DNA of 64,000 nucleotides from positions 5,234 to 69,233 of the forward strand of contig CAILMQ010000063.1 of the NCBI GenBank assembly GCA_903835385.1. Direction: 5' to 3'. The notes beneath the pieces were generated by a model, which made no database searches, was not told the origin of the DNA, and worked only from the letters and a program-made list of their open reading frames with translations. Below, one piece after another: positions 13,592 to 64,000 of the stretch. The stretch comes from an uncultured Candidatus Micrarchaeota archaeon. GTDB taxonomy: Archaea > Micrarchaeota > Micrarchaeia > Anstonellales > Bilamarchaeaceae. The translations under genes and the position numbers were made by a program. Each line of letters begins with the position of its first letter. Position 1 is the first letter of the stretch.

Positions 13592-16171
13592 ATGACAGAC
13601 GTAGCCGGCCTGGTAAAGGAAAGGTTCGGCGAGCTCACCGAAATCCAGAAACTCGCCATGCCCAGGGTCCTTGCCGGAGAGAACGTGCTAATCCTTGCCC
13701 CCACTGGCAGCGGAAAGACCGAGACCGCCCTGCTCCCGGTGCTGGAGAAGATAAGAACAGGGCAGGACAGAGGACACGGAACACTGGACACCGGAATCTG
13801 CGCGCTTTACATCACTCCGCTCCGCGCCCTGTCCCGCGATTTGCTCAAAAGGTTCCACTGGTGGTGCGAGCGGCTGGACATATCGCACGACGTGCGCACC
13901 GGGGATACGACACTCGCCGAAAGGGCCGCCCACAGGAAGAACCCGCCCAAAATCCTGCTCACCACGGTGGAATCCCTCCAGGCACTGCTTCTGGGCAGGG
14001 TTATGCGGAAACATCTCGCGAACGTGAAGTTCGTCATAGTGGACGAGGTGCACGACGTCCTGGACAACAAGCGCGGCGCCCAGCTCTCCATGGGCTTGGA
14101 GCGGCTCGGGCTCATAGCGGATTTCCAGCGCATAGGAATAAGCGCCACTGTGGCCAACGAGATGGAGGCCAGCCGCCTGCTGTTCGGGGACAGGATGCAT
14201 GCGGTCTGCGAAATGGGCAAGAACCGCAGGATGGACGTCTCGGTGGAGATGGCCGGAGACACGGAAAAACTCACTGCCAGGATGAAGGAGCTGGCGCAAA
14301 TGCACAGGGCTCTCATGTTCGTGAACACCAGGAGCATGGCCGAGGAGCTTTCCGCATCCCTGAGAAAAGCGGAGGCCCCCATAGACGTGCACCACGGCTC
14401 GCTTGCAAAGGAAATCAGGCTCGCGGCAGAGGACGGGTTCAAGTCAGGCTCGGTCCGCTCCCTGCTCGCCACGTCTTCCCTGGAACTCGGCATAGACATA
14501 GGCGACGTGGAGCTGGTGGTGCAGGTGGGCTCGCCGCACCAGGTGTTCAGGCTCATACAGCGCGTGGGCAGGTCGGGCCATTCGCTGGACAAGACTCCCA
14601 GGGGCATAGTGCTCGCCTCTGACACGGACGATTACCTGGAGGCGGAGGTCATCCGCTCCCTTGCGGAGAACGGCTGGATGGAGGACAAGAAGGCGGAGCG
14701 GGGCGCGTTGGACGTAATCGGCCACCAGCTCGTGGGGCTGTGCCTTGACCTGGGCAGGCTGGAGCTGAAAAAGGCGCACGAAATCCTTTCCAGGAGCTAT
14801 GCCTACGGGATATCCTACGACCAGCTGCGCCGCGTCGCGCTCCAGCTCTACGGGGAGAGCCTGGTCTATTACGACGAGCATCCTGACGGCGGGGTGGCCA
14901 TAAGAATCCGGCCCAGGGCGCGCGAGTACTACTATTCCAACCTCAGCACAATTCCCAAGGAGAAGCGCTACAGCCTCCGGGAGATAGCCTCCAACAGCAT
15001 AATCGCCTCCCTGGACGAGGGCTTCGTGGCGAACCTGGAGCCGGGCGCGTCCTTCCTCGCCAGGGGCAGGCCATGGCAGGTCGTAGACATAAGCGACAAG
15101 GAGGTCCTCGCCCAGCCCAGTTTTGCCTCTGACATAGCCATACCGGAATGGACAGGGGAGGACATCCCGGTTTCGTTCGAAGTGGCGCAGGGCGTCGGCA
15201 GCCTCAGGAATTCCGTGAAAAAAGACATCAGACCGCTGCCCGACGAGCGGACCGTGGTCGTGGAGATAATATCCGACGTGGTGATTGTGCATGCCTGCTT
15301 CGGCACCAGGGTGAACGAGGGCCTTGCGCGGCTGTTCTCCGCGAACCTCTCAAGGATAATCGGCGAATCCGTGCGCGCGGTCGCCGACCCCTACAGGATA
15401 ATGGTGAAGCTCCCCTTCCCGCTCGCTGAGGAGCACATCATGGGCGCCTGGGATTCCATAAACTCCGTCCGCGGCCCGCTGGAGGAGGCGCTTTCCGGGT
15501 CCTATTTGCTCAGGATGAAGTTCATCCACGTGGGCAGGCTGTTCGGCATGCTTTCAGAGGATGCGAGCGTCACCGGAAGGTTCATAACCGCTTTGCGCCA
15601 CTCCGCGGTGTACGAGGAGGCGGTGCGCTCGGTGTTCTCAAGATACTTCGACGTAGGGAAAACCGAAGATGTGCTCCGGCGGATGCGCAAAAAGGAAATC
15701 GCGCTCGTAGTTGACAAGAGGAGCAAGCCCAGCTATTTCGCAAAGCTCGGCCTGGACCGGCTCTCCAGCAAAGAGGCAATGGGCGGCTTCGAGCCCCGCG
15801 AGCAGATGGTCGCGGCTTTCAGGGAGCGGGCGCTTTCCAAGACCCTGCAGCTGAGATGCATGAGCTGCGGCGCCACGCGCTATCTTCATTTGGCAGGCGC
15901 GCCTGAGCAGCTCCCCTGCCACAAGTGCGGGGAAAAGGCCTACGCGCTGATAGAAAGGGAGGGCGAGGCAGAGGCCGAGCTGAGGTTCAAGGCGGGCCTG
16001 GTAAGGGCGTACGGGAAGAAGGCGCTCATCGCGCTCAGCACCTACGGCATAGGGGCCACGACCGCGGACCGCGTGCTCAGGAAGCTGCACCGCGACGAGC
16101 AGGGCTTTTACCTTGACCTGATAGAGGCGCAGAAGAACTTCATAAAGAACAAGCGGTTCTGGAAGCCCTGA
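13592..16171 (+). CDS. Lhr-family ATP-dependent DEAD/DEAH-box helicase
   Basis: Walker A APTGSGKTE, DEVH box (VIVDEVHD), SAT-like ISATV, helicase C motifs (HHGSL, LATSSLELGIDIG, QRVGRSGH). Long C-terminal extension with a CxxC...CxxC zinc ribbon. 859 aa. Confidence 0.85.
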   Translation: MTDVAGLVKERFGELTEIQKLAMPRVLAGENVLILAPTGSGKTETALLPVLEKIRTGQDRGHGTLDTGICALYITPLRALSRDLLKRFHWWCERLDISHDVRTGDTTLAERAAHRKNPPKILLTTVESLQALLLGRVMRKHLANVKFVIVDEVHDVLDNKRGAQLSMGLERLGLIADFQRIGISATVANEMEASRLLFGDRMHAVCEMGKNRRMDVSVEMAGDTEKLTARMKELAQMHRALMFVNTRSMAEELSASLRKAEAPIDVHHGSLAKEIRLAAEDGFKSGSVRSLLATSSLELGIDIGDVELVVQVGSPHQVFRLIQRVGRSGHSLDKTPRGIVLASDTDDYLEAEVIRSLAENGWMEDKKAERGALDVIGHQLVGLCLDLGRLELKKAHEILSRSYAYGISYDQLRRVALQLYGESLVYYDEHPDGGVAIRIRPRAREYYYSNLSTIPKEKRYSLREIASNSIIASLDEGFVANLEPGASFLARGRPWQVVDISDKEVLAQPSFASDIAIPEWTGEDIPVSFEVAQGVGSLRNSVKKDIRPLPDERTVVVEIISDVVIVHACFGTRVNEGLARLFSANLSRIIGESVRAVADPYRIMVKLPFPLAEEHIMGAWDSINSVRGPLEEALSGSYLLRMKFIHVGRLFGMLSEDASVTGRFITALRHSAVYEEAVRSVFSRYFDVGKTEDVLRRMRKKEIALVVDKRSKPSYFAKLGLDRLSSKEAMGGFEPREQMVAAFRERALSKTLQLRCMSCGATRYLHLAGAPEQLPCHKCGEKAYALIEREGEAEAELRFKAGLVRAYGKKALIALSTYGIGATTADRVLRKLHRDEQGFYLDLIEAQKNFIKNKRFWKP

Positions 16172-41464: not shown

Positions 41465-42169
41465 CTATTCCACCTTCCGTTTGATGTAGCCCTCCTTTAT
41501 GAGCATGTTCAGCCCGTCCTCCACGCGCCCCGGAGGCACGCTGCTGGCCTTGCCGAACTCCATGATGTCTATGTCGCCATTGTGCATCTTGAGCCAGTTG
41601 TAGAGCTCCTCCCTGAGCCGCTCGTCCGACATGGCGCGGAGCTTTTCCAGCAGCTCCCGCAGCTCGTCCCTGCGCCTCTCGCATTCAAGCAGTATGCGCG
41701 CGTTCTCCTCGCTGGAGCCGACCAGGTCCTGGTACCTGGCATTGAGCGAATCCGCCTTCGCCTTCAGCTCCTCAAGCTCCGCCGAGAGCTCCACCGCGTC
41801 CCTGCCCACGACCTTGGATATGTCCGAGAGCAGGCCTATGAGGTGCGAGAATATGGCCGACGGCTTCACTTCGTAATAGTCCTCGGAGAGCGTGAGCACG
41901 TTCATGAGCACGGGCAGCAGCTCCAGCATGCGCACCCGCTTGGAAACGTTCGGCGGAATGCCGTAGACCATCTCTATGGTGCTTTCCAGGAACGTTATCC
42001 GATAATCCAGGTTCGGCTTGCCCTTGAGGTCCTCGCCCTGGACCCTCTCCACAACGAGCCTTTCGTTGGTGTAAGTTATTGAGGTGAAACCCAGCTCGCC
42101 AAGCGCCGAAGCCAGCTTTGCAAGCTGCCCCTTCCTAGACGCCGGCACAGTTATCCTTTCTTCGCTCAT
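41465..42169 (-). CDS. Coiled-coil protein with C-terminal winged-helix-like domain; third gene of the VirB4-like ATPase operon
   Basis: The start lies 2 nt after the ATPase stop. A central heptad-rich segment (ELSAELEELKAKADSLNARYQDL...) is present. The C-terminal IDIMEFGKASSVPPGRVEDGLNMLIKEGYIKRK resembles a wHTH. Confidence 0.55.
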   Translation of the reverse strand: MSEERITVPASRKGQLAKLASALGELGFTSITYTNERLVVERVQGEDLKGKPNLDYRITFLESTIEMVYGIPPNVSKRVRMLELLPVLMNVLTLSEDYYEVKPSAIFSHLIGLLSDISKVVGRDAVELSAELEELKAKADSLNARYQDLVGSSEENARILLECERRRDELRELLEKLRAMSDERLREELYNWLKMHNGDIDIMEFGKASSVPPGRVEDGLNMLIKEGYIKRKVE

Positions 42170-42171
42170 GC

Positions 42172-43608
42172 CTATTCCTCCAGCACAACGTCGACCAGGC
42201 CCTTGGTCGCCTTCCTCATCTTAACGAGCGAGAAGGTCCTTATGAGGTTCCTCTCGTCCATGCCCAGCTGCCTCAGGAACGATATTATCGCGGACTTGCT
42301 GTAGCCGAACTTCTCGAGCATGGCCACGAACTGCTCGCTGTCCATGAGCCCGTCGGTCTTCTCGAACTCCCTTTTTATGAGGCCGAGCTGGTCCTCGGTC
42401 AGGCCGAGCTCGTAGAGCATCTTGACCAGCTGCTCCCTCTCCACCTCTATGTCCATGCCATCACCCGTTATCTTCATGAGGAAAAGCGGTTCCTCGCCGT
42501 CTATCTTGTCCATGAGGAAGGTGTTTATCTTCGATTGCCTCCTCGCGAATATCATGTTCACCGCCGCATCGCCCACTCCGAACTTGCCTATCTCGTTGTC
42601 TATGAACTGGGAGTACCCGATGGAGGTGCGCACGTAGTCCCTGTATTCCCTGAGCACGAGCCGCATCACGAATATGGTCCCGATGTTCGAGAATATGGTC
42701 TTGTGCATGTCCGTCGGGTTCTGGGTGGCCATCAGGAGCGCGAAATTGTACTTGCGCCCCTCGCGCACTATTGCGATGACCTCAGAGCGCTCGTCCTGCG
42801 CGATTTTCCACGCCTCGTCCAGCACTATGAACAGCCGCACCCCGGCTTCCTCCGCCGCGCCCTCGGCCCTCATTATTTCCTTCACGTACTGGAGTATGGT
42901 GAGCCCTGCGAGCGAGCGCACCTCCTCGGTGGGAAGGCTGTGCAGGTCCAGGCACACGAGCCCGGAGCTGGTGAGCGCCTTTATGTCCAGCGTGGAATCG
43001 CCGGCGAAGAAATCGCAGCCCTCGGACGTGAACCTCTTGAGCAGCCGCGCGGCCTTCTTCCTCTTCTTCTTGTCCAGCCACCTGACCACGTCCGAGAGGT
43101 TCGCCTTCTTCTTGGAGCCGTAGACCGCCTCAAGCGCCTCCTCTATCTCGTCGCGCTCGCGGGGGAAGGATTTGAGGTCCACAAGTATGTCCAGTGCGGA
43201 CACTATCTGCTTGATGCGGGAGCTTTTCGGCAGCCCGCCCACCAGGTCCAGCAGGTTGAGCCGCTCCTTGCCCAGGTCAATCACCCGGCCGCCGGCCTGC
43301 CTCACCCATTTGTCGTACTCGCCCACCCAATCCAGTATCAGGGCATTGGAGTTCCAAATCAGCGCGGCCCTTGTGAGGAACGTCTTCACCAGGTAGGACT
43401 TGCCGGAACCGGTTATGCCCACCACCGCCATGTGAGGGTTGATGAGCTTGCGGTGGTCCCAGAACACGGGCGCGTGGAGGAACCTGGTCTTGCCCAGGTA
43501 GATGCCCTCGCCGGGCATGGAGAGCAGCAGCTCCTTGCGCGGCTCCGGCGGATGGACCAGTATCATCTTGCGCGCCAGGTCCTTGGAAAAAAGGTAGGAA
43601 AGCTTCAT
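42172..43608 (-). CDS. VirB4/TraC-type (FtsK-HerA superfamily, DUF87-like) ATPase
   Basis: Walker A GITGSGKSY, ILDWVGEY (compare VirB4 DPKGEY), Walker B FIVLDEAWKI, REGRKYNFALLMATQNPTDM (VirB4-like RK..../ATQ motif). Confidence 0.75.
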   Translation of the reverse strand: MKLSYLFSKDLARKMILVHPPEPRKELLLSMPGEGIYLGKTRFLHAPVFWDHRKLINPHMAVVGITGSGKSYLVKTFLTRAALIWNSNALILDWVGEYDKWVRQAGGRVIDLGKERLNLLDLVGGLPKSSRIKQIVSALDILVDLKSFPRERDEIEEALEAVYGSKKKANLSDVVRWLDKKKRKKAARLLKRFTSEGCDFFAGDSTLDIKALTSSGLVCLDLHSLPTEEVRSLAGLTILQYVKEIMRAEGAAEEAGVRLFIVLDEAWKIAQDERSEVIAIVREGRKYNFALLMATQNPTDMHKTIFSNIGTIFVMRLVLREYRDYVRTSIGYSQFIDNEIGKFGVGDAAVNMIFARRQSKINTFLMDKIDGEEPLFLMKITGDGMDIEVEREQLVKMLYELGLTEDQLGLIKREFEKTDGLMDSEQFVAMLEKFGYSKSAIISFLRQLGMDERNLIRTFSLVKMRKATKGLVDVVLEE

Positions 43609-43622
43609 TCAATCGCTCCGCC

Positions 43623-44402
43623 CTAAAAAATCTCGTCCTTGATGTCTTCCTGCGTCGTGGGGAAGAACTGCTCCCACTCGAAGCACCTGAGCATGTCCAG
43701 GTCCGAAAGCTCGGAGATGTCGCAGCCCAGCGAGCTGGACAGTATGGTTTTCAGCTCCTTAGCCTGCCTGGCCGCCCTGGAAGCCGCCTCGTCCCTTGTG
43801 AGCCCGAATGAGGTCGTTGATGCGAACGCGATGAGCTCCACGGGCCTCTCGCCCCTGGTTATCCTGTCCAGCATCCTGTTCCACATGGCGATTTCCCTGT
43901 CCAGGCGCACTATCTCGTCCGAGGACGAGCCCGCCTTGGCCTTCTTCGCCTCCGCGGCGGAGCGCCTGGTCTTTATGTCCTCCAGCTCTCTTGAAAGCTC
44001 CACTGCGGATACCAGCAGCGATATCTTGACCACGTACTTGAGCGCGGCTATGGCCCTTTCAAAGGATTCGAACATGGTCGTCTTGTCCGCCTCGTTCTTG
44101 TCCATGGAACTCTCGTAGAAACGGATTTCCAGGAATTTCGTGGCGTAGTATCCGGAGGCGGTCTTCTTCGTTATGTAATCCCTGGTCGGGGGCACCTCGT
44201 ATCCGGACCTGACCTCCACCACGTTCGCCGCCCGGGTTATCATGGGTATGAGTATGTAGCCGTATTTCCAGACCGTGAGGCTGGTGCAGAAAAGCAGCGC
44301 GGCAGCCAGCGCCACCACCGAATTGCCATAAACCAGCGATGCGGCAAGCGCCAGCAGGCCGCCGGCGAGGGCTGTGACTGTGATTGCTCGGTTGACAAAC
44401 AT
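43623..44402 (-). CDS. Two-TM membrane protein with cytoplasmic helical domain (VirB3 / VirB4-N-terminal-like position)
   Basis: Two N-terminal hydrophobic helices are followed by a charged helical domain. It ends 14 nt before the ATPase start. Confidence 0.55.
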   Translation of the reverse strand: MFVNRAITVTALAGGLLALAASLVYGNSVVALAAALLFCTSLTVWKYGYILIPMITRAANVVEVRSGYEVPPTRDYITKKTASGYYATKFLEIRFYESSMDKNEADKTTMFESFERAIAALKYVVKISLLVSAVELSRELEDIKTRRSAAEAKKAKAGSSSDEIVRLDREIAMWNRMLDRITRGERPVELIAFASTTSFGLTRDEAASRAARQAKELKTILSSSLGCDISELSDLDMLRCFEWEQFFPTTQEDIKDEIF

Positions 44403-54900: not shown

Positions 54901-55129
54901 GCCGGACGTGCTGGACACCATACGCTCGAGAAAGGTCGGCATAATCATCAACACGCCTAGAAAGGGCGGAAGCTCCAGCACGGACGGCTTCAAGATACGG
55001 CGCGCGGCGATAGAGCAGGGAATCCCCTGCCTGACCAACATAAACACGGCATTCGAGTTTTTGAAAGCGCTGAAAGAACTGAAGGACAAGCCGCTGGAAG
55101 TGCGCACTGTGGAAGAATGGATTCAATAA
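51971..55129 (+). CDS. carB: Carbamoyl-phosphate synthase large subunit
   Basis: Duplicated ATP-grasp halves (VLVIGSGPIVIGQSAEFDYSGTQA and ILVIGSGPIRIGQGIEFDYCC). IEVNPRLSRSSALASKATGYPIA is present, plus a C-terminal MGS-like domain. 1052 aa. Confidence 0.95.
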   Translation: MRMAGTKKVLVIGSGPIVIGQSAEFDYSGTQACRALREEGVEVVLVNSNPATIQTDKETADRVYIEPLTAEILERIIEREKPSGILATVGGQTGLNLAMELHRKGILQKHGVEFMGTDAEAIEKAESREKFNVTMRSIGIPLLPGQIVHDFESAKKFAEKIGYPVIARPSFTLGGTGGGTAYDESQLKDILDLGFRLSATGEVLVEKSGIGWGEFEYEVIRDADGNSVIICTMENFDPLGIHTGESIVAAPVQTLSDRDNQMLRDASIRIVGAIGVKGSCNVQFALNQQTGQYVVIEVNPRLSRSSALASKATGYPIARVATKIALGKKLHEVKNAITGTSAAFEPALDYVVLKIPRWPFDKFSKSNRTLGTMMKSTGEAMAIGRTFEEALMKAMRSLDVKPPKAIRPQWHLNPATDQRLYAIFEALRKGMTVDELNKETKIHKWFLERVKGLVALETEIANTNQPLTPELLLRAKRNGFPDSLIANLKSMNELEVRSLRKKHGILPTYKIVDSCAGEFEAVTPYYYSTYEKENEAIPEAARKILVIGSGPIRIGQGIEFDYCCSHAAFALRELGIKSIMVNNNPETVSTDFDSSDRLYFEPLVFEDVMNIVENENPEGVIVQLGGQTSLNLAHRLADAGVRILGTQLEGIDVAENRERFRELSEKLAIPQPPNGTATGDGEAHRIANRIGYPVVVRPSYVISGRGMAIVNDDNELTAFMAGAAEISNGSPVLIDKYLDNAIEAEVDAIGDGKDLFIGAIMEHIEPAGVHSGDANIVLPPLRMSKEARKTIVEYSEKIASSLATVGLINIQYAVKDNKVYILEANPRASRTVPYVSKAIGVPMVKMAVRVILGEKLKNLKPSPRGKIFAVKSVVFPFLKLAGTDISLGPEMRSTGETMGLGKTFELAYYKALMAAGVSMKQAGNVPVAFLSLRDEDKKMVPELAKVLASLGFEVCGTKGTVEGIPGACPIPKIGQGSPDVLDTIRSRKVGIIINTPRKGGSSSTDGFKIRRAAIEQGIPCLTNINTAFEFLKALKELKDKPLEVRTVEEWIQ

Positions 55130-55130
55130 A

Positions 55131-55164
55131 TTACCGAAAGGTATATTAAATTATCTTTCGGTAA
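55131..55164. terminator. 10-bp perfect inverted repeat TTACCGAAAG-(14 nt AT-rich)-CTTTCGGTAA between carB and the MNT gene
   Basis: Lies 2 nt after the carB stop and 7 nt before the MNT start. It could act as a terminator hairpin, as an operator for the MNT-HEPN pair, or both. Confidence 0.4.
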
Positions 55165-55170
55165 ATAATT

Positions 55171-55710
55171 ATGTCATTCCGGTCGTTTGCAGGCCTGCGC
55201 CTGCTCGAGTGGTTTCTCGCAAACCCCACCCAAAGAATCCATTTCAAGGAATTGTGCCGCAGGCTCGGGCTCGCGCCGCTGTCCGTGAAAACTTATTGCG
55301 AGGAATTCCTTGCGCAGGGGTGGATACTTGAAGACCGGACCGCAAACCTCAGGATATTCCATCTGAACGACGCGGACTGCCGCATCAGGGCCATGAAAAA
55401 GGCATGGTTCCTGCAAATCCTGAGCGAATTAAAGATAGAAACCGTTGTTGATGACAGGGCCATATCCTTCGCTCTGTTCGGAAGCCATGCGTCGGGCGGT
55501 TTTGACGAAAAAAGCGACATAGACCTTATCGTTATAGGCAGGAAAGAGAACGTTGATTACAGCCGCGCGGAAAAGCTCGGGGATATCATAAAAAAGCAGG
55601 TCCAGCTCACCGTGATACCATTGGCCAGGTGGGAGAAGAACAAAGCCACCGACCCGTTCATCATGTCCGTTGCCAGGAACCACGTTCTGCTCAGGGGGCT
55701 GACGCTATGA
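55171..55710 (+). CDS. Minimal nucleotidyltransferase (MNT) with N-terminal winged-helix domain
   Basis: LFGSHASGGFDEKSDIDLIVI matches the GSxAxG...SDxDLxV MNT motif. The N-terminal roughly 90 aa look like a wHTH. Confidence 0.75.
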   Translation: MSFRSFAGLRLLEWFLANPTQRIHFKELCRRLGLAPLSVKTYCEEFLAQGWILEDRTANLRIFHLNDADCRIRAMKKAWFLQILSELKIETVVDDRAISFALFGSHASGGFDEKSDIDLIVIGRKENVDYSRAEKLGDIIKKQVQLTVIPLARWEKNKATDPFIMSVARNHVLLRGLTL

Positions 55711-56120
55711 CGTTCGAGGATTGCATCAGGAAAGGTTTGATCAGGAAATCCGAAAGCACGAAAGAAAAGATCGAACAGTCTCTCGCCCTTGGCGACAAGT
55801 TCCTCAAAGCCGCCGGGAAAAACCTCAAAATGGAAGAATACGAGGTTTCCGAAATCATATCCTACAATGCACTGTTTCATTATGCCCGGGCATTGCTTTT
55901 CCAAAAAGGGTATAACGAAAGAAGCCACGCCTGCCTTTTCCTGGCATTGAAGGAACTTTATCCGGACAACAAAGAGCTTTTCGACAAGGCTGATAAAATC
56001 AGGGCCGAGCGGCATAACCTTCAATATTCCGGACTGGCCACGGACCTGGAATCGGTTGAGTACGTGCTCGGATTCGTAAAGGAATTCAGGGTCAAGGCGG
56101 AAAAACTGCTGAAACGCTGA
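55707..56120 (+). CDS. HEPN-domain protein (partner of MNT)
   Basis: Overlaps the MNT stop by ATGA. All-helical, 137 aa, with an IRAERHNLQY motif of the R..R(N/H)...Y HEPN type. Confidence 0.7.
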   Translation: MTFEDCIRKGLIRKSESTKEKIEQSLALGDKFLKAAGKNLKMEEYEVSEIISYNALFHYARALLFQKGYNERSHACLFLALKELYPDNKELFDKADKIRAERHNLQYSGLATDLESVEYVLGFVKEFRVKAEKLLKR

Positions 56121-56163
56121 GGCTGGCCAGCCTAACCGACCGAACAGGCAGGCGTTATCGCCT

Positions 56164-56907
56164 TCAATCGGTCTCTATTCTCGGTGCAAGGTAGTACGTT
56201 ACCTGGGCTCCCTCTATTTCATACTGGAGCTTCATGGGCCTGTCGGTTTCCAGGTTCACGGTGACAATCGAGCTCCCGCTCGTCGCCTTTATCATGTCCT
56301 CCAGGTACTGGAGCGGGAAGGTCGCCCTCGCGCCCTTTTCTGTCACTATTTCAGAGACCTCGCCGCCGCCAGCCTCGAACTCCTCCTTCACGTCGCCGTT
56401 CTCGCCCCTCACTTCTATGAGGAACGTGTTCTTGTCCAGGAGCAGCTTGACATGGGAGCTGACGAGCTTCGCATCCTTGAGCGTCTCCTTGAGCGCTTCA
56501 GCGGTGACTTTCGCGTGGCTCGTGTACTCCATCTTGGGCTCGCGCGAGAGCCCCTCCCCTATTTCTATGAGCGGTATCTTGAATGTCCTCTTGCGCTTGT
56601 CCGCGAAGAACTTCACCACCAGCCTGCCGTCCTCCAGGCTGAGCTCGGCCTTCTCCCCCTTCTTGCCGCGTGCGAGCACGTTGCTGAGCTGGCCGATATC
56701 CAGGCCGATTTTCCTCTCCTCCGGCACGTTATACTCCACAAAGGCGCTTTTGGGCATGTGGAAGGACACCATGGAAATCTGCGACGGGTCCATTGCCCGC
56801 AGGTGCAGGCCATCCGCCTTAACCTCGAACTGGCCTTCTTCCACAAGGCTGACAATTGAATCAATGGCTGACTTTAGCGCAGGTGCCTCCTGTACAACGA
56901 GTTTCAT
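56164..56907 (-). CDS. pcn: DNA polymerase sliding clamp PCNA
   Basis: 247 aa. The typical archaeal PCNA N-terminus (..A..LK.AIDSIV.LVEEG.F.V..DGL.LRAMDPS.I.MV) and a two-domain repeat layout. Confidence 0.9.
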   Translation of the reverse strand: MKLVVQEAPALKSAIDSIVSLVEEGQFEVKADGLHLRAMDPSQISMVSFHMPKSAFVEYNVPEERKIGLDIGQLSNVLARGKKGEKAELSLEDGRLVVKFFADKRKRTFKIPLIEIGEGLSREPKMEYTSHAKVTAEALKETLKDAKLVSSHVKLLLDKNTFLIEVRGENGDVKEEFEAGGGEVSEIVTEKGARATFPLQYLEDMIKATSGSSIVTVNLETDRPMKLQYEIEGAQVTYYLAPRIETD

Positions 56908-56991
56908 AAAAAGACCTCCCGCTCATTTGGATGTTCGGTAGATAATAAAAAAGAATCGGGTGGCATGTGAAATCCAACCCATCACCCATCA

Positions 56992-56999
56992 TTTTAAAT
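56992..56999 (+). promoter_or_regulatory. TATA-box-like TTTTAAAT upstream of the HTH_10 regulator
   Basis: Ends 23 nt before the ATG at 57022. Confidence 0.35.
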
Positions 57000-57021
57000 C
57001 CCAGTCTGCGATTTCCCCCTT

Positions 57022-57762
57022 ATGGAAGGAAGAGAGGGCAAAAGGGTCGTGCGCTACACCCACCCGGTGCTCTTTGAAGTGGACATAAACCACCTCTGCT
57101 GGTTCGTTGACCTCACCGAGAGGAACCCGGATGCCAGGCTGGTTTCCACGCTGTCCACGGTCCATGGGAACACAATCATCAACATCGTCCAGCTTTCCTC
57201 CCCAACGCCGAAAAAGGACATAGACTTCATCAAAAGGCATCCGCTTGTCAAGGCCGTGGAAATAGTGATGCTCAACCCCTCGTCCGCGATGCTCAAAGTC
57301 ACGTCCAGCTACCAGGCTATGACGTATCACATCCTTCACCGGACGAACGTCACGCTCCTAGAATCCCCGGTCACCAGCAACGGCCTTGACACGGAACTCC
57401 TGCTCGCCAAGTCGCACAAGGACATGGACGAACTACTCAGCATGTGGAAGGAGCAGAAGGATTACTACGACGTGAAGCTGAAAAAGAAGCGCTACCTGGA
57501 GCCCGGGGAGTCGGCCACGTTCAACGTTTTCAGGACAAGCGGCTTCTTTGACCTCAAAAGCGCGAAGGGCATGCTCACCCCCAAGCAGTTGGAGGTGTTC
57601 CGGCTCGCCTGCGACTACGGCTATTACGACATGCCCAAGAGGATCACAATAGAGGAGCTCGCGGAGCGGACCGGCCTCTCCCCATCCACGCTCGCCGAGC
57701 ACCTCCGCAAGGCAGAGACCAGGCTGCTGCCCGTGCTCTGGAAAGTGCTGAACAAGATGTAG
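57022..57762 (+). CDS. Bat-type HTH_10 transcriptional regulator
   Basis: The C-terminal LTPKQLEVFRLACDYGYYDMPKRITIEELAERTGLSPSTLAEHLRKAETRLL is the bacterio-opsin-activator-type HTH_10 domain. Confidence 0.7.
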   Translation: MEGREGKRVVRYTHPVLFEVDINHLCWFVDLTERNPDARLVSTLSTVHGNTIINIVQLSSPTPKKDIDFIKRHPLVKAVEIVMLNPSSAMLKVTSSYQAMTYHILHRTNVTLLESPVTSNGLDTELLLAKSHKDMDELLSMWKEQKDYYDVKLKKKRYLEPGESATFNVFRTSGFFDLKSAKGMLTPKQLEVFRLACDYGYYDMPKRITIEELAERTGLSPSTLAEHLRKAETRLLPVLWKVLNKM

Positions 57763-57797: not shown

Positions 57798-57819
57798 GAG
57801 TTATCAGCAGTATAATTAT

Positions 57820-58593
57820 ATGCAACCAGAGTTACAGGAAGCGCTGAGCAAGGGGTGGAAAAGCACCTGCAAATCAATCTTCGGCGAAGAAATCGGCGAG
57901 CTGGAGGAATACGCGGATTACCTGGGGGAGGCGGTGGTCGGGAGGACGGCGAAATCCTCCTTTTCGGGAAAAAGCCTCTGGGTGGCCTCCAGGAACCATT
58001 GCGAAGGCGCGAGGTTCTTCGACTTTACGGAGGAAAGCGCCCAGCTGGCGAAATTGAAGGGCTCGCTGGACATCAACCGCATAAAGGACATTGATTCGCT
58101 GCTTGAAGGGCTCAGGGAAACCCTGGTATACAGCGGCAACAAGGTGACCGGGAACTCGAAATTCGTGGAGCATTCCGACTCCGTGATAGACAGCATGCTC
58201 ATATTCAACTCCTCCATGGTCATCGGCGGCAAATGCCAGGCATATACCTACGTGCAGCAGTACGCCGAATACGCGTTCGGCTCAACCTCAAGCGGCCAGT
58301 CCGCGAACATCATAAGGTGCTTCTACAACAACAGCCTCAACCGGTGCTTCGAGGTGTGCGCCACGGTGAAGGCCTCGGACTCCCATTTTTCCTACAACAT
58401 CTGGAGCTGCAGCGACTGCATGTTCTCATTCAACCTCAGGAACAAGACGCACAACATAGCCAATGTCCAGCTGGGCAAGGAGCAGTACCACGGCCTCAAA
58501 TGCAAGCTGCTGGCTGAGATTTCCCAGGAGCTGAAGAGGAAAAAGCGGCTGGATTACTCCATACTGGACATAGCAAACGGGGCGGTCGCATGA
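57820..58593 (+). CDS. Cys-rich hexapeptide-periodic paralog, A-type module (A1)
   Basis: N-terminal LSKGWKSTCKSIFGEEIGELEEYADYL, mid INRIKDIDS, C-terminal CSDCMFSFNLRNKTHNIANVQL...Y..LK.KLLAEI. No signal peptide or TM helix. Confidence 0.75.
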   Translation: MQPELQEALSKGWKSTCKSIFGEEIGELEEYADYLGEAVVGRTAKSSFSGKSLWVASRNHCEGARFFDFTEESAQLAKLKGSLDINRIKDIDSLLEGLRETLVYSGNKVTGNSKFVEHSDSVIDSMLIFNSSMVIGGKCQAYTYVQQYAEYAFGSTSSGQSANIIRCFYNNSLNRCFEVCATVKASDSHFSYNIWSCSDCMFSFNLRNKTHNIANVQLGKEQYHGLKCKLLAEISQELKRKKRLDYSILDIANGAVA

Positions 58594-59399
58594 ACGAGGA
58601 GCTGGAAAAGGAGTTTCAGAACACCACGCGGCTGCTGGTTGGGAAGGAGTTGCACGGCCTGGACGACTATTCCGAATGGCTCGGCCAAAGGGTCCCGCTT
58701 CCAAGGGAAACCAAGTCCGCAATCAGCGGCAAGGAGGCCTGGGTCGGCCCGCCGCTAATCTATCTCGGAAAGGAGTTCAACCTCAGGAACGCCATCCTGC
58801 TGGAGGAGATGGACCAGGCGAACGAATCGCCTTTCACTGCCGAAGACGTTGCCAAGGCCTCGCTTAGGGGCATAATGGGGAAGCTCCTGAGCCCTGTCAG
58901 GTACCATATCGCGAACATGCGCTACCAGGCCCATGAAAACGTCTGGAAATGCAGCGGCGCCGGAGGGGGGAGGAACATCTACCATTGCGACGACGTGTAC
59001 CTGGACGTGAAGAACGTGGCATATTCCAACTACACCCTGTGGTCGCACAACGCGTTCGGGTGCCACGGGGTGACGAGTTCCGGCTTCGTGATGCACGCCT
59101 ACAACTGCTCCAGGCTGGCCCGCTGCTTCGAGGTTGACGGCTGCTCGGACTCCAGTGGCCTGCTGTTCTGCCACAACTGCGAGAACGTGCAGGACTCCAT
59201 GTTCTGCTTCAATGCCAAGAACCTGCGCTACGCCATAGGCAACCTGCAGGTTCCGCCGGACAGATACAAGGAGATAAAATCACGCGTTCTCGCTGAAATC
59301 GCCGCAGAGCTGGAGAAAAACAAGTGCCTGAAATGGGACATATTCAACATCGGGTGCAAGAGGGAAGCGCTATGGTATCGCAGGCTTACGACGCCCTGA
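58590..59399 (+). CDS. Cys-rich hexapeptide-periodic paralog, B-type module (B1)
   Basis: ATGA overlap with A1. N-terminal EKEFQNTTRLLVGKELHGLDDYSEWL, C-terminal RCFEVDGCSDS..LFCHNCENVQDSMFCFNAKNLRYAIGN...ELEKNKCLKWDIFNIG. Confidence 0.75.
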   Translation: MNEELEKEFQNTTRLLVGKELHGLDDYSEWLGQRVPLPRETKSAISGKEAWVGPPLIYLGKEFNLRNAILLEEMDQANESPFTAEDVAKASLRGIMGKLLSPVRYHIANMRYQAHENVWKCSGAGGGRNIYHCDDVYLDVKNVAYSNYTLWSHNAFGCHGVTSSGFVMHAYNCSRLARCFEVDGCSDSSGLLFCHNCENVQDSMFCFNAKNLRYAIGNLQVPPDRYKEIKSRVLAEIAAELEKNKCLKWDIFNIGCKREALWYRRLTTP

Positions 59400-60955
59400 A
59401 CCGCTCGTGGAAAAGCACCTGCAGGGTCCTGCTCGGCGATGAAATCGGCGAGCTTGCGAAGTACGAGCCCTGGCTTTCCGAGCACCGCGTGCCTTTGCTT
59501 AGGAAAAAATCAGCCCTCTCGCAAAAGGACATCTATTGCGCGACGACCGATTACGCGGACGGCGCGGAGTTCGTTTCCCTCGACGAGGTGGACTACGGCA
59601 AAAAGTTCCAGCCCCTGGGCATCAACGAGATAAAGGACATCGACTCCATTGTGGGGGCGGTCGGGGAGCGCTTCCGATACTGCGGGAACGTGGTTCTAGG
59701 GAATTCAAGCCACGTGGAAAACAGCTCAGACGTCCAGAACTCGTTCTATGTGCTCGGGTCCAACTTCATCTATGATTCCGAATACGTCGCCTATTCCTCC
59801 TATTGCCGCGGAAGCAAGCACCTTTTCGCGGTCATCAGCGACTACAGTTGCGACCACCTCATAAGGGTGTTCGAAACCCACAAGCAATCCCGCTGCCTTG
59901 AGGCGTGGAAATGCTACAATTCCAGCGACTGCTACTTCTGCTGCAGCGTGGAAGGCTCCCAGGACGCGATGTTCTCCTTCAACCAGAAGAACAAAAGGAA
60001 CGTTATCGGGAACATGGAGCTCCCCAGGGAGAGGTATTTGCAACTGAAGGAAAAGCTCGTCTCGGAAATAAGGGAGGAGCTGCTCAGGAACAAAAAACTT
60101 TTGTCCCTGATGGAAATCGTCTCCGCCAGCGCCAAACCCATGAAACTTCCGAAGCTGGAATCCAAAGTGCTTGGCGAGGATGGCGACAAGGCGCCCATTG
60201 AGGCGGCGTTCGGGAAAACCACGAACGTGGTGCTGGGAAAACCGCTCCATGACTTCGAATCCTACGGCCCATGGCTCAAACAGCACGTCCCCCCCGTGCT
60301 TGAGCGGCGCTCGGCCGCGACCGGGAAAAGAATGCACATTCCCGGCGTAACGCCCTGCACCCTTTTTCCGTCCGACCGCCTTGTGGATATGGACGAGTAC
60401 TGGCAGATAGGCGAGAGCACAAGGCTGGACGAGCCGGACATCAAGTCCCTGGACAGCATAAAGGAATCAGTCGGGAAGATCGCCTTCGCCAATCCGAACG
60501 GCACGCTGGGCGAATGCAGGAATATCATGCTCGTGCCCCTTTGCAACACCTCCATAAACTGTTACTGCTGCCCCATAGCCTCGTTCAACGAAGGCGCGGC
60601 GTTTTCGTACTGGCCAAGGACCTCCAAGTTCGTGTTCGGCTCGGCCCTGGCGTTCTCGTCCAGTTTCTGCATAAACAGCTATTACTCCGTGAACCTTTCC
60701 CGAACGTTCGAGGTGGACGGGTGCAACAACTGCTCGGACGCGTATTTCTGCCACAACTGCGAGAACGTGCAGGACTCCATGTTCTGCTTCAATGCCAAGA
60801 ACCTCAGGTTCGCAATCGGGAACTCGCAGATGCGGCCCGAGGAATACAAAAAGGCGAAAACCCTCATCTTGGGCCAGATTGCGGACGAGCTGGAGAAAAA
60901 CAAGAGCCTGAAATGGGATATATTCAACATAGGAGCCAGGACGGTGGGAACATGA
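59372..60955 (+). CDS. Fused A-type + B-type module protein (A2-B2)
   Basis: The ATG at 59372 gives MVSQAYDALNRSWKSTC..., the same N-terminus as A1/A3/A4. The A-type end (AMFSFNQKNKRNVIGN...EIREELLRNKKL) is joined by a linker to a B-type start at about 60197 (IEAAFGKTTNVVLGKPLHDFESYGPWL). The B-type end is CHNCENVQDSMFCFNAKNLRFAIGN...ELEKNKSLKWDIFNIG. Confidence 0.75.
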   Translation: MVSQAYDALNRSWKSTCRVLLGDEIGELAKYEPWLSEHRVPLLRKKSALSQKDIYCATTDYADGAEFVSLDEVDYGKKFQPLGINEIKDIDSIVGAVGERFRYCGNVVLGNSSHVENSSDVQNSFYVLGSNFIYDSEYVAYSSYCRGSKHLFAVISDYSCDHLIRVFETHKQSRCLEAWKCYNSSDCYFCCSVEGSQDAMFSFNQKNKRNVIGNMELPRERYLQLKEKLVSEIREELLRNKKLLSLMEIVSASAKPMKLPKLESKVLGEDGDKAPIEAAFGKTTNVVLGKPLHDFESYGPWLKQHVPPVLERRSAATGKRMHIPGVTPCTLFPSDRLVDMDEYWQIGESTRLDEPDIKSLDSIKESVGKIAFANPNGTLGECRNIMLVPLCNTSINCYCCPIASFNEGAAFSYWPRTSKFVFGSALAFSSSFCINSYYSVNLSRTFEVDGCNNCSDAYFCHNCENVQDSMFCFNAKNLRFAIGNSQMRPEEYKKAKTLILGQIADELEKNKSLKWDIFNIGARTVGT

Positions 60956-61752
60956 CGGACACGGCCTCTGGAACGGATGACAGCGTCCTGTACGCGGCGC
61001 TGGACAAGGCGTGGAAATCCACGTGCAAGGCGGTCCTGAAAGGCGAAATCGGGGACCTGAAAGACTACAGGGAATACCTGAAAAAATACACCGACCCTGT
61101 GGAATACAGGCGCTCCTTCATTTCAGGGAAAGAGGTGTCCATATCCTCCAGCCGCTTCAACAGCAATGCGCGCTTCCTGGACAACAACGAGGCCGCGGAA
61201 TACAACAGCAGGCTCGCTGCCATGCCCCTGGGCATAAACAGCATAAAGGACATGGACTCCGTTGCGGAGGCGATTTCCGAGAGGGCGTGCTATGCAGGCA
61301 ACATCGTTCTGGGCAATTCCGCGCACGTCGCACGGTCCCACCGCGTGGTGAACACTAACTACGCGCTGGAATGCCAGGACATCTATGACGGGAAATACGT
61401 CGCCTACGCCTCATCCATGCGCTACCCCGAGTATTTCTTCGGAGGCGGGGTGGGGAGCGTGTCCCAGTTCTGCATAAAGACGCAGGAGAACTACAAGATG
61501 GCCAGGTGCATGGAGACCATACACATGAATATCACGTCCGACTGCTATTTCTGCGCCAGTCTGGAGAACTGCAGCGACTGCATGTTCTCCTTCAACCAGA
61601 AGCACAAGCGTTTCCTGATAGGCAACCTCCAGCTGCAGAAGGACGATTATGCCGCGCTCAAGGACAAGCTTCTCGCCGAGATACGCGAGACGCTGCAACG
61701 GGACAAATCCGTCATCTCCATAGCTGAAATCATAGGTGGTCAGCGTGGATGA
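60952..61752 (+). CDS. Cys-rich hexapeptide-periodic paralog, A-type module (A3)
   Basis: ATGA overlap with A2-B2. LYAALDKAWKSTCKAVLKGEIGDLKDYREYL, GINSIKDMDS, SDCYFCASLENCSDCMFSFNQKHKRFLIGNLQL. Confidence 0.75.
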   Translation: MTDTASGTDDSVLYAALDKAWKSTCKAVLKGEIGDLKDYREYLKKYTDPVEYRRSFISGKEVSISSSRFNSNARFLDNNEAAEYNSRLAAMPLGINSIKDMDSVAEAISERACYAGNIVLGNSAHVARSHRVVNTNYALECQDIYDGKYVAYASSMRYPEYFFGGGVGSVSQFCIKTQENYKMARCMETIHMNITSDCYFCASLENCSDCMFSFNQKHKRFLIGNLQLQKDDYAALKDKLLAEIRETLQRDKSVISIAEIIGGQRG

Positions 61753-62524
61753 GTACGAAAAGGCGTTCCAGTCAATCGCCTCGGTCGTGCTGGGAAGGAA
61801 GCTCGCAGGATACCGCGATTACGAGGTATGGCTCACCAGGGGCATAAATGGCATGACCGAGGTCCGGTCTGCCATGAGCGGAAAGCGGACGTACCTGCCG
61901 CTGTTTTCCTTTTACGATGCAATACGCCATAGGCTGCTGACCGAGGACGAGGCCTATGGGACGGCTGGAAAGAGGCACCTGTCCGAAGAGGAGGTGCGCG
62001 GCCTGTCCCTGGCGAACGCAACTCAGGCGCTGAAGGGCATCTCAATCACCACCTCCGAGACGTCCATGGGCACATGCAGCCGCATCAAGGAATGCGGGGT
62101 GTATTTCGATTCCTCGGCGTGCTTCAGGAGCAGCCTCGTGGCCATGAGCAAGTATGCGATTTACACCTTCTGGCCCAGGAATTCGGAATACGTCCTGGGG
62201 TGCAATTACGTCTTCTCGTGCAGCTTCTGCGCCAGGTGCTTCAATTCCGAGAACCTGGCCCGCTGCTTCGAGGTCAGCGATTCAGCCAACTGCAGCGACT
62301 GCTATTTCTGCTACAACTGCGACAGCCTACAGGACTGCATGTTCTGCTTCAATGCCAAGGCCAAGAAATACGCCATAGGCAACGTGCAGCTGCCGCCCGA
62401 GCAATACCGGAAGATAAAGGGATTGCTTCTGGCCCAGATGGCGGACGAGCTGGAGAAAAACAAGAGCCTGAAATGGGGCGTATTCAGCATCGGAGCGCCG
62501 CAGCCAGGGAAGCGGCCGGAATAA
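61736..62524 (+). CDS. Cys-rich hexapeptide-periodic paralog, B-type module (B3); GTG start
   Basis: There is no in-frame ATG near the A3 stop; GTG candidates are at 61736 and 61745. YEKAFQSIASVVLGRKLAGYRDYEVWL start and RCFEVSDSANCSDCYFCYNCDSLQDCMFCFNAKAKKYAIGN...ELEKNKSLKWGVFSIG end. Confidence 0.7.
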   Translation: MVSVDEYEKAFQSIASVVLGRKLAGYRDYEVWLTRGINGMTEVRSAMSGKRTYLPLFSFYDAIRHRLLTEDEAYGTAGKRHLSEEEVRGLSLANATQALKGISITTSETSMGTCSRIKECGVYFDSSACFRSSLVAMSKYAIYTFWPRNSEYVLGCNYVFSCSFCARCFNSENLARCFEVSDSANCSDCYFCYNCDSLQDCMFCFNAKAKKYAIGNVQLPPEQYRKIKGLLLAQMADELEKNKSLKWGVFSIGAPQPGKRPE

Positions 62525-62534
62525 GGGGCAGGAC

Positions 62535-64000
62535 ATGACGCCGCAGGCTTATGACGTACTAAACCGCGCATGGAAGAGCACCTGCAGGGTGGTTCTCGGC
62601 GCCGAGGTCGGCGAGCTGGAAGAATACAAGGGATGGCTCGGGGAATACCTTCCGCCAGTTGGGAAAAGGAAATCCTATATTTCGGGCAGGGAGGTCACGC
62701 TCGCAAACCCGCGCTATCCGGATGACGCAAGGTTCGTCTCCATGGAGGAAATACGCGAGAAGAAAGCCGACCCCTTGGGCATCAACGACATAAAGGACAT
62801 GGATTCCGTAGTCCGGGCGGTCTCCGAGCAATGGGAATACGCCGGCAACAGGGTGCAGGGCAATTCCGCCATGGTGGAAGCGTCCGATATCGTGGTTGAC
62901 TCCCAGTCGGTTTCAGGCTCCACGGACATAGCGCAGTCGCAATATGTCTTTTCTTCGTTCATGGTCAGGGGCGGGTCAAAGTACATATTCGGCTCCGGCT
63001 GGTTCAGCAAAACCGAATTCGCCATAAGGCACGTGAGCGGGTTCAACAATGCCCGGATTCTTGACAGCTCCCTTGTCACGGATAGCAGCGACATATACTA
63101 TTGCCATAACATGGCCGGTTGCATGGACGCGATGTTCTCTTTCTCCCAGAGGAATTCCAGGCATTGCATCGGGAACCTCGTGCTTCCCAAGGACAAATAC
63201 CTGCCTTTGAAGTCCAAGCTCCTCTCGGAGATAAGGGAAGAGCTGAAGGCGAAGAAAAGGTTTCCGTCCCTGATGGACATGGTGGCGGATAAAGGAACGG
63301 CCGGCGGAACCCTCGAGCTGCCGGAGAGGAATGAGAAAACCGACATCGTTCCGGTGGAAAAGGCGTTCTCATCGCTTTTCCGGATCTTGTTCGCGAAAGA
63401 ACCCGCAGGAATGGGCCCGTGCGAGAACTGGCTGCTAAGGAACATCCCGCCCATCCAGGAAGTGGAATCGCCGTTCGGGCGCAGGACATTCGTGCCGGCT
63501 GACGAGTCATTCGCCTGTTTCTACAGGTTCCCCAGAAACCGGATTGTCACGCTTTACGAGGCGCTGGAACTTGGGAAATTGAGATTGAACGAGCGCGATA
63601 TGGCCAGCCTGGGAAAAATACAGGAAAACCTGAAGGAAATAGCATTCTTCACGGCAGAGCTTGTCGGAGGCAATTCCAGCAATGCAATGAAGTCCCCGGT
63701 GGTCTATAACTCATCCAACATATACAAGGTATACGACGCCACATATTCCGAATACGCCAGCATGGGCTCGCTCAGCCTGAATTCCAAATACGCGTTCGGC
63801 TGCTACCGGATAATAGACTCCGAGTTCTGCCTCAAATGCAACAACTCCCTGCGCCTCAGCCGCTGCTTTGAGATGGACAGCTCCTCTAACTGCCTGGATT
63901 CCATGTTCTGCCATAACTCCGAGGCGCTGAGCGACTGCATGTTTTGTTTCAATGCCAAGGCCAAAAGGCATGCCATCGGCAATGCCCAGTTAGCGCCCGA
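62535..64000 (+). CDS. Fused A-type + B-type module protein (A4-B4), 3'-truncated by the window edge; absent from the ORF track
   Basis: Hand translation from the ATG at 62535 finds no stop through nt 63998. MTPQAYDVLNRAWKSTCRVVLGAEVGELEEYKGWL..., GINDIKDMDS, GCMDAMFSFSQRNSRHCIGN. The B-type start is at about 63354 (VEKAFSSLFRILFAKEP...ENWL), leading to SRCFEMDSSSNCLDSMFCHNSEALSDCMFCFNAKAKRHAIGN. Confidence 0.75.
   Translation, partial: MTPQAYDVLNRAWKSTCRVVLGAEVGELEEYKGWLGEYLPPVGKRKSYISGREVTLANPRYPDDARFVSMEEIREKKADPLGINDIKDMDSVVRAVSEQWEYAGNRVQGNSAMVEASDIVVDSQSVSGSTDIAQSQYVFSSFMVRGGSKYIFGSGWFSKTEFAIRHVSGFNNARILDSSLVTDSSDIYYCHNMAGCMDAMFSFSQRNSRHCIGNLVLPKDKYLPLKSKLLSEIREELKAKKRFPSLMDMVADKGTAGGTLELPERNEKTDIVPVEKAFSSLFRILFAKEPAGMGPCENWLLRNIPPIQEVESPFGRRTFVPADESFACFYRFPRNRIVTLYEALELGKLRLNERDMASLGKIQENLKEIAFFTAELVGGNSSNAMKSPVVYNSSNIYKVYDATYSEYASMGSLSLNSKYAFGCYRIIDSEFCLKCNNSLRLSRCFEMDSSSNCLDSMFCHNSEALSDCMFCFNAKAKRHAIGNAQLAP

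Follow-up and report, generated by a model that had tools for sequence, protein, structure and literature searches.

The window analysed here, 64,000 nucleotides (nt) of a tiny, symbiotic and uncultured Candidatus Micrarchaeota archaeon (contig CAILMQ010000063.1, positions 5,234 to 69,233 of the forward strand), ends in an array of eight Cys-rich modules of ~255 amino acids (aa). They belong to two types, A and B, which alternate strictly from 57820 to 64000 and, on the contig, onward to 64118. Two A-B pairs are encoded as separate genes (A1/B1 and A3/B3) and two as single fused genes (A2B2 and A4B4). We consider it highly probable that the array represents four old paralogous pairs, translationally coupled, whose products are obligate A·B (pseudo)heterodimers working with an ATPase. 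The mixture of fused and split pairs is real, conserved across related genera and selected, and the sequences indicate that A and B co-evolve as a unit. Moreover, the family is strictly tied phyletically, and usually physically, to one FtsK/HerA-type ATPase, and the genomic island that carries both is dispensable.

The coordinates of the features are listed in Table 1. Those of all A/B genes and junctions agree with the preliminary description of the locus, as checked with the list of open reading frames (ORFs) and by reading the junctions; frames, stops and starts also uphold its division into two separate and two continuous pairs. The A1 stop and the B1 start have ATGA in common at 58590-58593. 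Between the pairs, the end of B1 overlaps the A2 start codon (ATG at 59372) by 28 nt, the B2 stop and the A3 start share ATGA at 60952-60955, and a gap of 10 nt separates the B3 TAA from the A4 ATG (62535); these three junctions had likewise been described correctly. For B3 two in-frame GTG codons are available, at 61736 and 61745, the latter giving an overlap of 8 nt with A3. Since the orthologous A3/B3 junctions of four other loci (L015, L016, L018 and L022) have an ATG at the -8 position, with GGTGA just before it, B3 most likely starts at 61745. In the fused genes the modules are joined by linkers of ~23 aa, SASAKPMKLPKLESKVLGEDGDKAP in A2B2 and ADKGTAGGTLELPERNEKTDIVP in A4B4 (63285-63353). 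Both linkers are free of stop codons, as had been claimed, and their columns are unconserved across 62 homologs. In the split pairs A and B are in different frames and the linker is wholly missing. Junctions within and between pairs are mostly ATGA (-4) or ATGnnTGA (-8) overlaps, hence the arrays are translationally coupled operons.

Table 1. Positions of the A-B genes and their neighbours (window numbering; window-equivalent positions where given)
Feature	Position	Strand	Description
A1	57820..58593	+	standalone A module, 257 aa (ORF list)
B1	58590..59399	+	standalone B module, 269 aa; stop 59397-59399
A2B2	59372..60955	+	fused, 527 aa, single open frame
A2B2 parts	A module 59372-60121; linker 60122-60196; B module 60197-60955	+	
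A3	60952..61752	+	standalone A module, 266 aa; TGA at 61750-61752
B3	61745..62524	+	standalone B module, ~259 aa; TAA at 62522-62524
A4B4	62535..64000, continues beyond window	+	fused; complete 527-aa ORF on the contig, end at window-equivalent 64118
FtsK/HerA-type ATPase	window-equivalent 64129-66147	-	672-aa P-loop protein, convergent with array
Island left edge	56922..57021	.	island extends to ~window-equivalent 67807
HTH_10 (Bat-type) transcription regulator	57022..57762	+	246 aa; Pfam HTH_10 E=2.9e-20
Threonine-synthase-like pyridoxal-phosphate (PLP) enzyme	window-equivalent 66267-67658 (L010:11501-12892)		463 aa, PALP E=6e-25

Among the eight modules of the window, A and B are 25-37% identical and can be aligned over ~255 residues. 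Profiles of the two types nevertheless discriminate between them, with ~430 bits for the correct type and ~130 for the wrong one; A1, for example, scores 421 bits with the A profile and 139 with the B profile. Separate hidden Markov models of A and B were mapped onto 13 loci from other genomes. There the A-B alternation is unbroken throughout, A always comes first, and splits occur solely at the A/B boundary. Because the profiles separate cleanly and the same alternation recurs in these 13 loci, the order in the window is not a matter of chance. Of the 54 pairs, 37 are fused and 17 split; most arrays contain both forms, and two are entirely fused (7 and 10 pairs). The mixed array, presented at first as a feature of this locus, is indeed found here, but it is a general property of the family and not a local peculiarity.

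Frameshifts or assembly errors at the split junctions, a risk raised in the preliminary description, would mean that the split pairs are artefacts of a low-coverage metagenome-assembled genome (MAG) and that all four pairs are truly fused. In favour of such artefacts are the depth of the public runs, which is merely 2-6x, the repeat-induced B3/B4 joints that the assembler produced (see below), and the different frames of A and B in both split pairs, which resemble the outcome of a 1-nt error. Logan contigs from four public runs, three from freshwater sediment (one study) and one from peat (another study), were compared with positions 57800-64000 and showed zero inserted or deleted letters. Error-free contigs span positions 58590 (run X1), 59372-59399 (X1, X3, X4), 60952 (X3) and 61745 (X2, X3) as well as the A4B4 linker (X1, X2, X3). 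The peat strain (X4) differs by 26 substitutions in 684 nt over A3/B3, without gaps; the TGA of A3 is retained, and the changes closest to the junction (61741 and 61753) are synonymous in the B3 frame. The same split pairs are found in a relative from an independent metagenome. This JGI contig (L014) encodes PCNA, HTH_10, A1 (257 aa), B1 (269 aa), A2B2 (533 aa), A3 (267 aa) and the start of B3, with gene order like that of the window and proteins 82-91% identical. Furthermore, standalone genes of the A1/B1 and A3/B3 types form clades of 6-8 loci from different genera, and a search with B1 returned ~75 standalone orthologs (253-280 aa, 44-83% identity) across many Micrarchaeota. A single-base error would also leave the linker in place, whereas it is completely gone from the split pairs. 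We therefore give the artefact explanation next to no credence.

In the Logan contigs of three runs a joint was observed that goes back 1600 letters, from 63993 to 62394, between the conserved C-terminal motifs of B4 and B3. These paralogs are therefore merged or wrongly connected by short-read assemblers, and arrays of the A/B family may be miscounted in MAGs.

If the split junctions are genuine, the split genes might still be decaying, functionless halves of once-fused genes. The position of A3/B3 amid fused relatives (see below) fits this idea, as the pair was probably born of a frame-disrupting event in the linker. However, both halves are of full length and have no internal stops, clean coupled start codons are kept across genera, and the split clades are old. 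Between the window and L014, the ratio of nonsynonymous to synonymous substitution rates (dN/dS) is 0.16 for A1, 0.22 for B1 and 0.20 for A3, close to that of the fused A2B2 (0.10); for HTH_10 it is 0.11. The split genes are constrained as strongly as the fused ones, and purifying selection acts on both. Decay is consequently very improbable. Equally little speaks for programmed ribosomal frameshifting at the overlap, which would rejoin the split pairs into one A-B polypeptide. The B frame is indeed shifted by -1 (A1/B1) or +1 (A3/B3) relative to A and begins exactly at the A stop, but a slippery heptamer is not visible at either junction. Although the junction sequence differs among orthologs, a start codon is always retained, and it is often preceded by a GGTG/GGAGG-like stretch, as is typical of reinitiation. 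Identical overlaps are also present at the B/A junctions between pairs, where fusion is not expected.

Maximum-likelihood trees were calculated for 54 A and 53 B modules (107 modules, 13 loci). A1 and B1 each belong to an all-split clade of 8 loci (support 100 in both cases), and A3 to an all-split clade of 6 loci (support 99). The closest relatives of B3 are also all split, but without a strongly supported clade. A2 and B2 fall into an all-fused clade of 4 loci, together with L014, L011 and L015 (support 97 for A and 98 for B), and A4 and B4 into an all-fused clade that comprises the identical six loci in both trees (99 and 96). Since each of the four pairs groups with its own orthologs, they are old paralogs. 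Hence, the fusion/fission within one locus that had been proposed initially stands insofar as both forms are real, but what is seen are four old paralogous pairs and not one pair occurring twice. The A and B trees mirror each other, each pair of the window being placed with the same partner loci, and this congruence shows that the pair is the unit of duplication. The split or fused state requires 4-5 changes on either tree, compared with ~14 when the labels are shuffled. A comparison of these states in related genomes, as the preliminary description had envisaged, found them conserved per orthogroup across several genera. This conservation of a mixed state argues that the A and B halves are partners.

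In a tree of both types together, A and B are each monophyletic with respect to the other (support 100); they are ancient paralogs. When B is rooted with A, the B1 split clade is sister to all remaining B modules (support 97); A1/B1 may therefore preserve the state before fusion. The A3 split clade, in contrast, is nested in a well-supported clade (98) that includes fused members, and for this reason A3/B3 most likely arose by secondary fission. The different frames and the missing linker of the split pairs fit a course of events in which the linker changed frame and was then trimmed, and a start codon close by was taken into use. In the case of A3/B3, once the frame of the linker had changed, the start codon recruited would have been one that lies 8 nt ahead of the new stop.

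The B genes also share identical stretches at the nucleotide level. Despite a protein identity of ~41%, B1 and B2 have a run of 59 nt with perfect identity (59166-59224 and 60746-60804), which spans the FCHNCENVQDSMFCFNAKNL motif and in which all synonymous sites are identical. Runs of 39 nt (B2/B4) and 37 nt (B2/B3) occur at the ELEKNKSLKW motif. Such runs suggest that gene conversion has acted locally or that the nucleotide sequence itself is constrained.

The structure of A2B2 was predicted with AlphaFold2 from an alignment with 62 homologs. The model has a mean predicted local distance difference test score (pLDDT) of 88.7 and a predicted template modelling score (pTM) of 0.87. Residues 253-273 are coil, and the mean pLDDT dips to 79 in the block 261-270. 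Each half contains two N-terminal helices, a few strands, a helix, many very short strands and a long C-terminal helix. In the best reading, the N-terminal part of a module is helical/beta; it is followed by a narrow beta-solenoid with a ladder of Cys residues and, at the C-terminus, by a long helix. Since a pTM of 0.87 is high for a chain of two modules, the model implies that the arrangement of A and B in the fused protein is confidently fixed. B1 alone was predicted with a pLDDT of 82.6 and a pTM of 0.78, and its solenoid reaches 65-80 compared with 88-96 in the fused B2. This lower confidence of B1 alone is no more than suggestive.

Foldseek searches of the fused model and of B1 alone against the PDB and viral models yielded nothing significant, with no match below E = 0.6. 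The weak top matches (best E = 0.64, range 0.64-1.2, TM <= 0.25) are all left-handed beta-helices, namely gamma-carbonic anhydrases, PglD, LpxD and dynactin p25/p27. With neither a Hexapep profile match nor a significant structural match, the modules do not qualify as members of the left-handed beta-helix or hexapeptide-repeat class; antifreeze structures are absent from the Foldseek matches. In the C-terminal solenoid of the 107 modules, Cys-enriched columns occur at each third residue over ~22 residues. The Cys-rich columns are spaced 3 to 6 residues apart, within units of 12 residues, for example NCSDAYFCHNCE / NVQDSMFCFNAK. The Cys occupancy per column ranges from 22 to 96%, and no column is invariant. 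Conserved polar residues in B (numbering of the B2 module) are R172, E175, H189, N190, E192, N202, K204 and N212; those conserved in A (numbering of the A2 module) are K88, D89, D91, S92, Y103, G105, R174, E177 and N214. The modules have a near-neutral isoelectric point and a negative grand average of hydropathy, and neither a signal peptide nor a membrane segment is apparent by eye.

Taken as partners, A and B would be the obligate subunits of a 1:1 heterodimer, tethered to each other by the unconserved linker in A2B2 and A4B4. In A1/B1 and A3/B3, where A1/B1 may retain the ancestral unfused state, the stop/start overlaps (ATGA or GTGnnTGA) would couple translation and thereby hold the stoichiometry. 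As an alternative, A and B might not be in contact at all, but be independent paralogs, co-duplicated and co-regulated as a two-gene unit, with neutral fusions. We infer the contact, and block duplication in tandem would likewise produce mirrored trees. On the other hand, fused pairs make up about two thirds of the total (37 of 54) and have long been retained, order and alternation are intact in all 54 pairs, and the pTM of the model implies that the two modules have a definite position relative to each other and are not strung like beads. Independent paralogs are accordingly an unlikely explanation.

The gene convergent with the array encodes an ATPase of the FtsK/HerA superfamily. It matches PF01935 (DUF87/HerA) with 41.1 bits (cut-off 23.2) and PF10412 (TrwB_AAD_bind) with 26.7 bits (cut-off 20.5). 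A closer naming had to be abandoned, as the HerA, CedD, VirB4 and TraD models match the P-loop / Walker A region only, and the named families in NCBIfam, PADLOC and the PDB match solely around the Walker A motif. The protein does not qualify for the HerA-based anti-phage class (Sir2-HerA, DUF4297-HerA), since it scores 19 bits with the NCBIfam model HerA_antiphage (cut-off 800) and the PADLOC HerA matches are restricted to its P-loop; nor does it match the type IV coupling / Ced class at equivalog level, with 35.6 bits for CedD (600) and 19.8 for TraD (521). A hydrophobic segment was not seen by eye at its N-terminus. Among the neighbouring genes no NurA, Sir2 or DUF4297 domain turned up.

A homolog of this ATPase adjoins the array in 9 of the 13 loci, and in 6 of them the array is led by an HTH_10 regulator. 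One relative has just a single A-B gene, which the ATPase gene, encoded on the same strand, overlaps by 4 nt. Among 41 related genomes, 19 encode both the family and the ATPase and 19 neither; the family alone was found in none and the ATPase alone in 3 (Fisher p = 8e-9). The ATPase gives one or two matches per genome, compared with 1 to 51 modules. One motor would serve an expandable repertoire of A·B dimers. From co-occurrence and adjacency, we propose that the A-B pairs act with the convergently encoded single ATPase under the HTH_10 regulator.

In seven loci (L010, L015, L016, L017, L018, L022 and L024) the ATPase gene and the last A-B gene converge. In several of these their 3' ends overlap or are a few nt apart, for example 8 nt in L017 and 19 nt in L022; in the contig of the window they are separated by 10 nt. 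This conserved tail-to-tail arrangement might provide antisense or termination coupling.

Several points weigh against the proposal of ATPase-associated heterodimers. The physical contact within the split pairs A1/B1 and A3/B3 is deduced from the fused and conserved states, and the comparison with B1 alone is weak, since paralogs and alignments differ. The deep branches of the A subtree, on which the choice between split and fused as the ancestral state depends, have low support (15-38). Three of the 41 genomes encode the ATPase without detectable A-B genes; in these the ATPase may act solo or the MAGs may be incomplete. No function of A and B is suggested by Pfam, NCBIfam, PADLOC, PHROGs or the PDB, and none of the RNA runs contains the stretch. 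Finally, the non-invariant cysteines argue against a strict metal centre, and a catalytic function cannot be named.

The array is part of an island of 10.9 kb whose first gene is HTH_10, encoded on the strand of A1 and ending 57 nt before it; the island further contains the four A-B pairs, the ATPase and the PLP enzyme. The latter is the sole other recurring neighbour of the array. It is of a divergent type whose C-terminal part appears membrane-spanning by eye, it is encoded divergently beside the ATPase in four loci (L010, L016, L017 and L022), and it is a candidate for a fourth member of the cassette. A link to the nearby putative VirB4-type operon (41465-44402) was considered and dropped, because its 478-aa protein is present in all 41 relatives and hence unspecific. 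This protein (42172-43608, minus strand) gives 2-4 matches in most of the 41 genomes, some of them in two pieces, and belongs to the core of the lineage.

Two genomes of the same genus, G001 and G002, lack the island and have neither the family nor the ATPase. In G002 the sequence matching window-equivalent 67808 onward starts 84 bp past the PCNA match, and the neighbouring proteins are 96% identical to those of the window. Since L014 carries the left half of the island at the same PCNA-flanked site (its contig ends within the array), loss in G001 and G002 would be the simpler history. Close to the right end of the island, the motif AAAAGACTAG occurs where the PLP-enzyme gene ends (L010 about 12883-12892), and it occurs again at the empty site of G002 (L025 about 15000-15060), right after GATAATAAAA, which in turn matches the left edge of the island (window about 56945-56957). 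AAAAGACTAG could be a short repeat at the point of deletion or insertion, or a chance match. An MNT-HEPN pair (55122-56167; nucleotidyltransferase 55171-55710, HEPN to 56120) is also missing from G002, where carB and PCNA are nearly contiguous. This pair makes up another small island of variable presence, next to the main one and independent of it. In L011 and L012, which are more distant loci, a homologous pair is encoded close to the A-B gene.

The A and B proteins have no match in Pfam (E <= 0.1), NCBIfam, PADLOC or PHROGs, and a PDB profile search found none either. The name 'methanogenesis marker 9 / metal-binding transcription factor', which JGI gives to a distant homolog (P0383), was dropped for lack of an NCBIfam match. 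A word-indexed search with A2B2 returned 535 proteins; among the 120 matches listed nearly all have ~525 aa and, where the source gives a name, are annotated as hypothetical proteins from Micrarchaeota. In an exhaustive profile search, 1,899 representative clusters (50% identity) matched at E <= 1e-3 and 326 of them at E <= 1e-30, and among the matches listed most have two modules and few a single one (254-264 aa). The family is present in 35 of 201 sampled genomes of the phylum, and 33 of these 35 belong to the order of the window. Its presence is patchy even inside genera, and the number per family-positive relative ranges from 1-25 pairs, or 1 to 51 modules. Three genomes (G031, with 1.5 Mb, G016 and G022) have 35-51 modules each. 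In G031 the modules occupy ~39 kb, or ~2.6% of the genome, including 10 consecutive fused pairs by the ATPase (L024). Family-rich Micrarchaeota genomes have congeners without any module.

Gene fusion and fission and the Rosetta-stone inference drawn from them are textbook knowledge, and the occurrence of split genes in DPANN archaea, Nanoarchaeum equitans among them, is likewise well known. As in such pairs, the same two domains are found here as one ORF or as two adjacent ones, both forms are intact and selected, and fusion predicts interaction of the split products, as we propose. In contrast to the classical cases, both states coexist as paralogs in one operon, each conserved in its orthogroup across genera; at least 4-5 changes of state took place in one family; and the partners themselves are ancient paralogs, which would make the complex a pseudo-homodimer turned heterodimer. 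With beta-solenoids such as the left-handed beta-helix or TmAFP, the 12-residue Cys-laddered antifreeze helix of a beetle, the modules would share a predicted short-strand solenoid core with recurrent Cys columns. However, they are apparently cytoplasmic, without a signal peptide, and have an additional N-terminal domain and a C-terminal helix, and their unit would be a heterodimer rather than a trimer.

Modules built around FtsK/HerA-type ATPases include HerA-NurA, Sir2-HerA, DUF4297-HerA, VirD4/TraD, the Ced ATPases and EccC of the type VII secretion system. Here, too, one P-loop ATPase is genetically tied to non-ATPase partner genes. By analogy to EccC with its Esx or PE/PPE proteins, a single motor would serve many tandem-encoded paralogous heterodimeric partners that lack a Sec signal. 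Unlike the known HerA partners or secretion substrates, the partners in the present case are 255-aa Cys-rich solenoids. No description of the family, of its solenoid without a significant relative in the PDB, of the recurrent mixed split/fused arrays or of the coupling to a divergent FtsK/HerA-type ATPase was found in full-text searches of the literature.

One motor with many diversified pairs, the accessory spread and the missing secretion signal fit a role as client, substrate or subunit of the ATPase, be it in defence or in dealings with the host cell. At somewhat less than even odds, we tentatively favour a role in defence or cell-cell interaction, with A and B as partner, client or substrate of the ATPase. 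It is less probable that A and B are a metal- or thiol-dependent enzyme or binding protein; such an activity would be centred on the conserved R/E/H/E/K/N set in B. Some other role is rather doubtful, and a structural polymer is improbable. A more far-reaching idea, to which we attach little probability, is a Micrarchaeota-specific machine in which a soluble FtsK/HerA-type motor works with an expandable, diversifying repertoire of A·B solenoids, up to ~25 pairs or ~2.6% of a 1.5-Mb genome, of a new fold class. In such a machine the dimers could be effectors exported or delivered toward a host archaeon, analogous to EccC with Esx or PE/PPE, or they could serve a HerA-based immune complex as exchangeable sensor/effector subunits.

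The A/B family is thus large, lineage-restricted and unannotated, and it makes up a sizeable fraction of some very small DPANN genomes. With matched fused and split paralogs in one operon, it offers a natural experiment on tethering versus translational coupling in the upkeep of a heterodimer. The A-B interface, the interaction of A·B with the ATPase and the conserved residues are first handles on this unannotated family, which it owes to the tight link to the ATPase and the island-like presence or absence of that gene.

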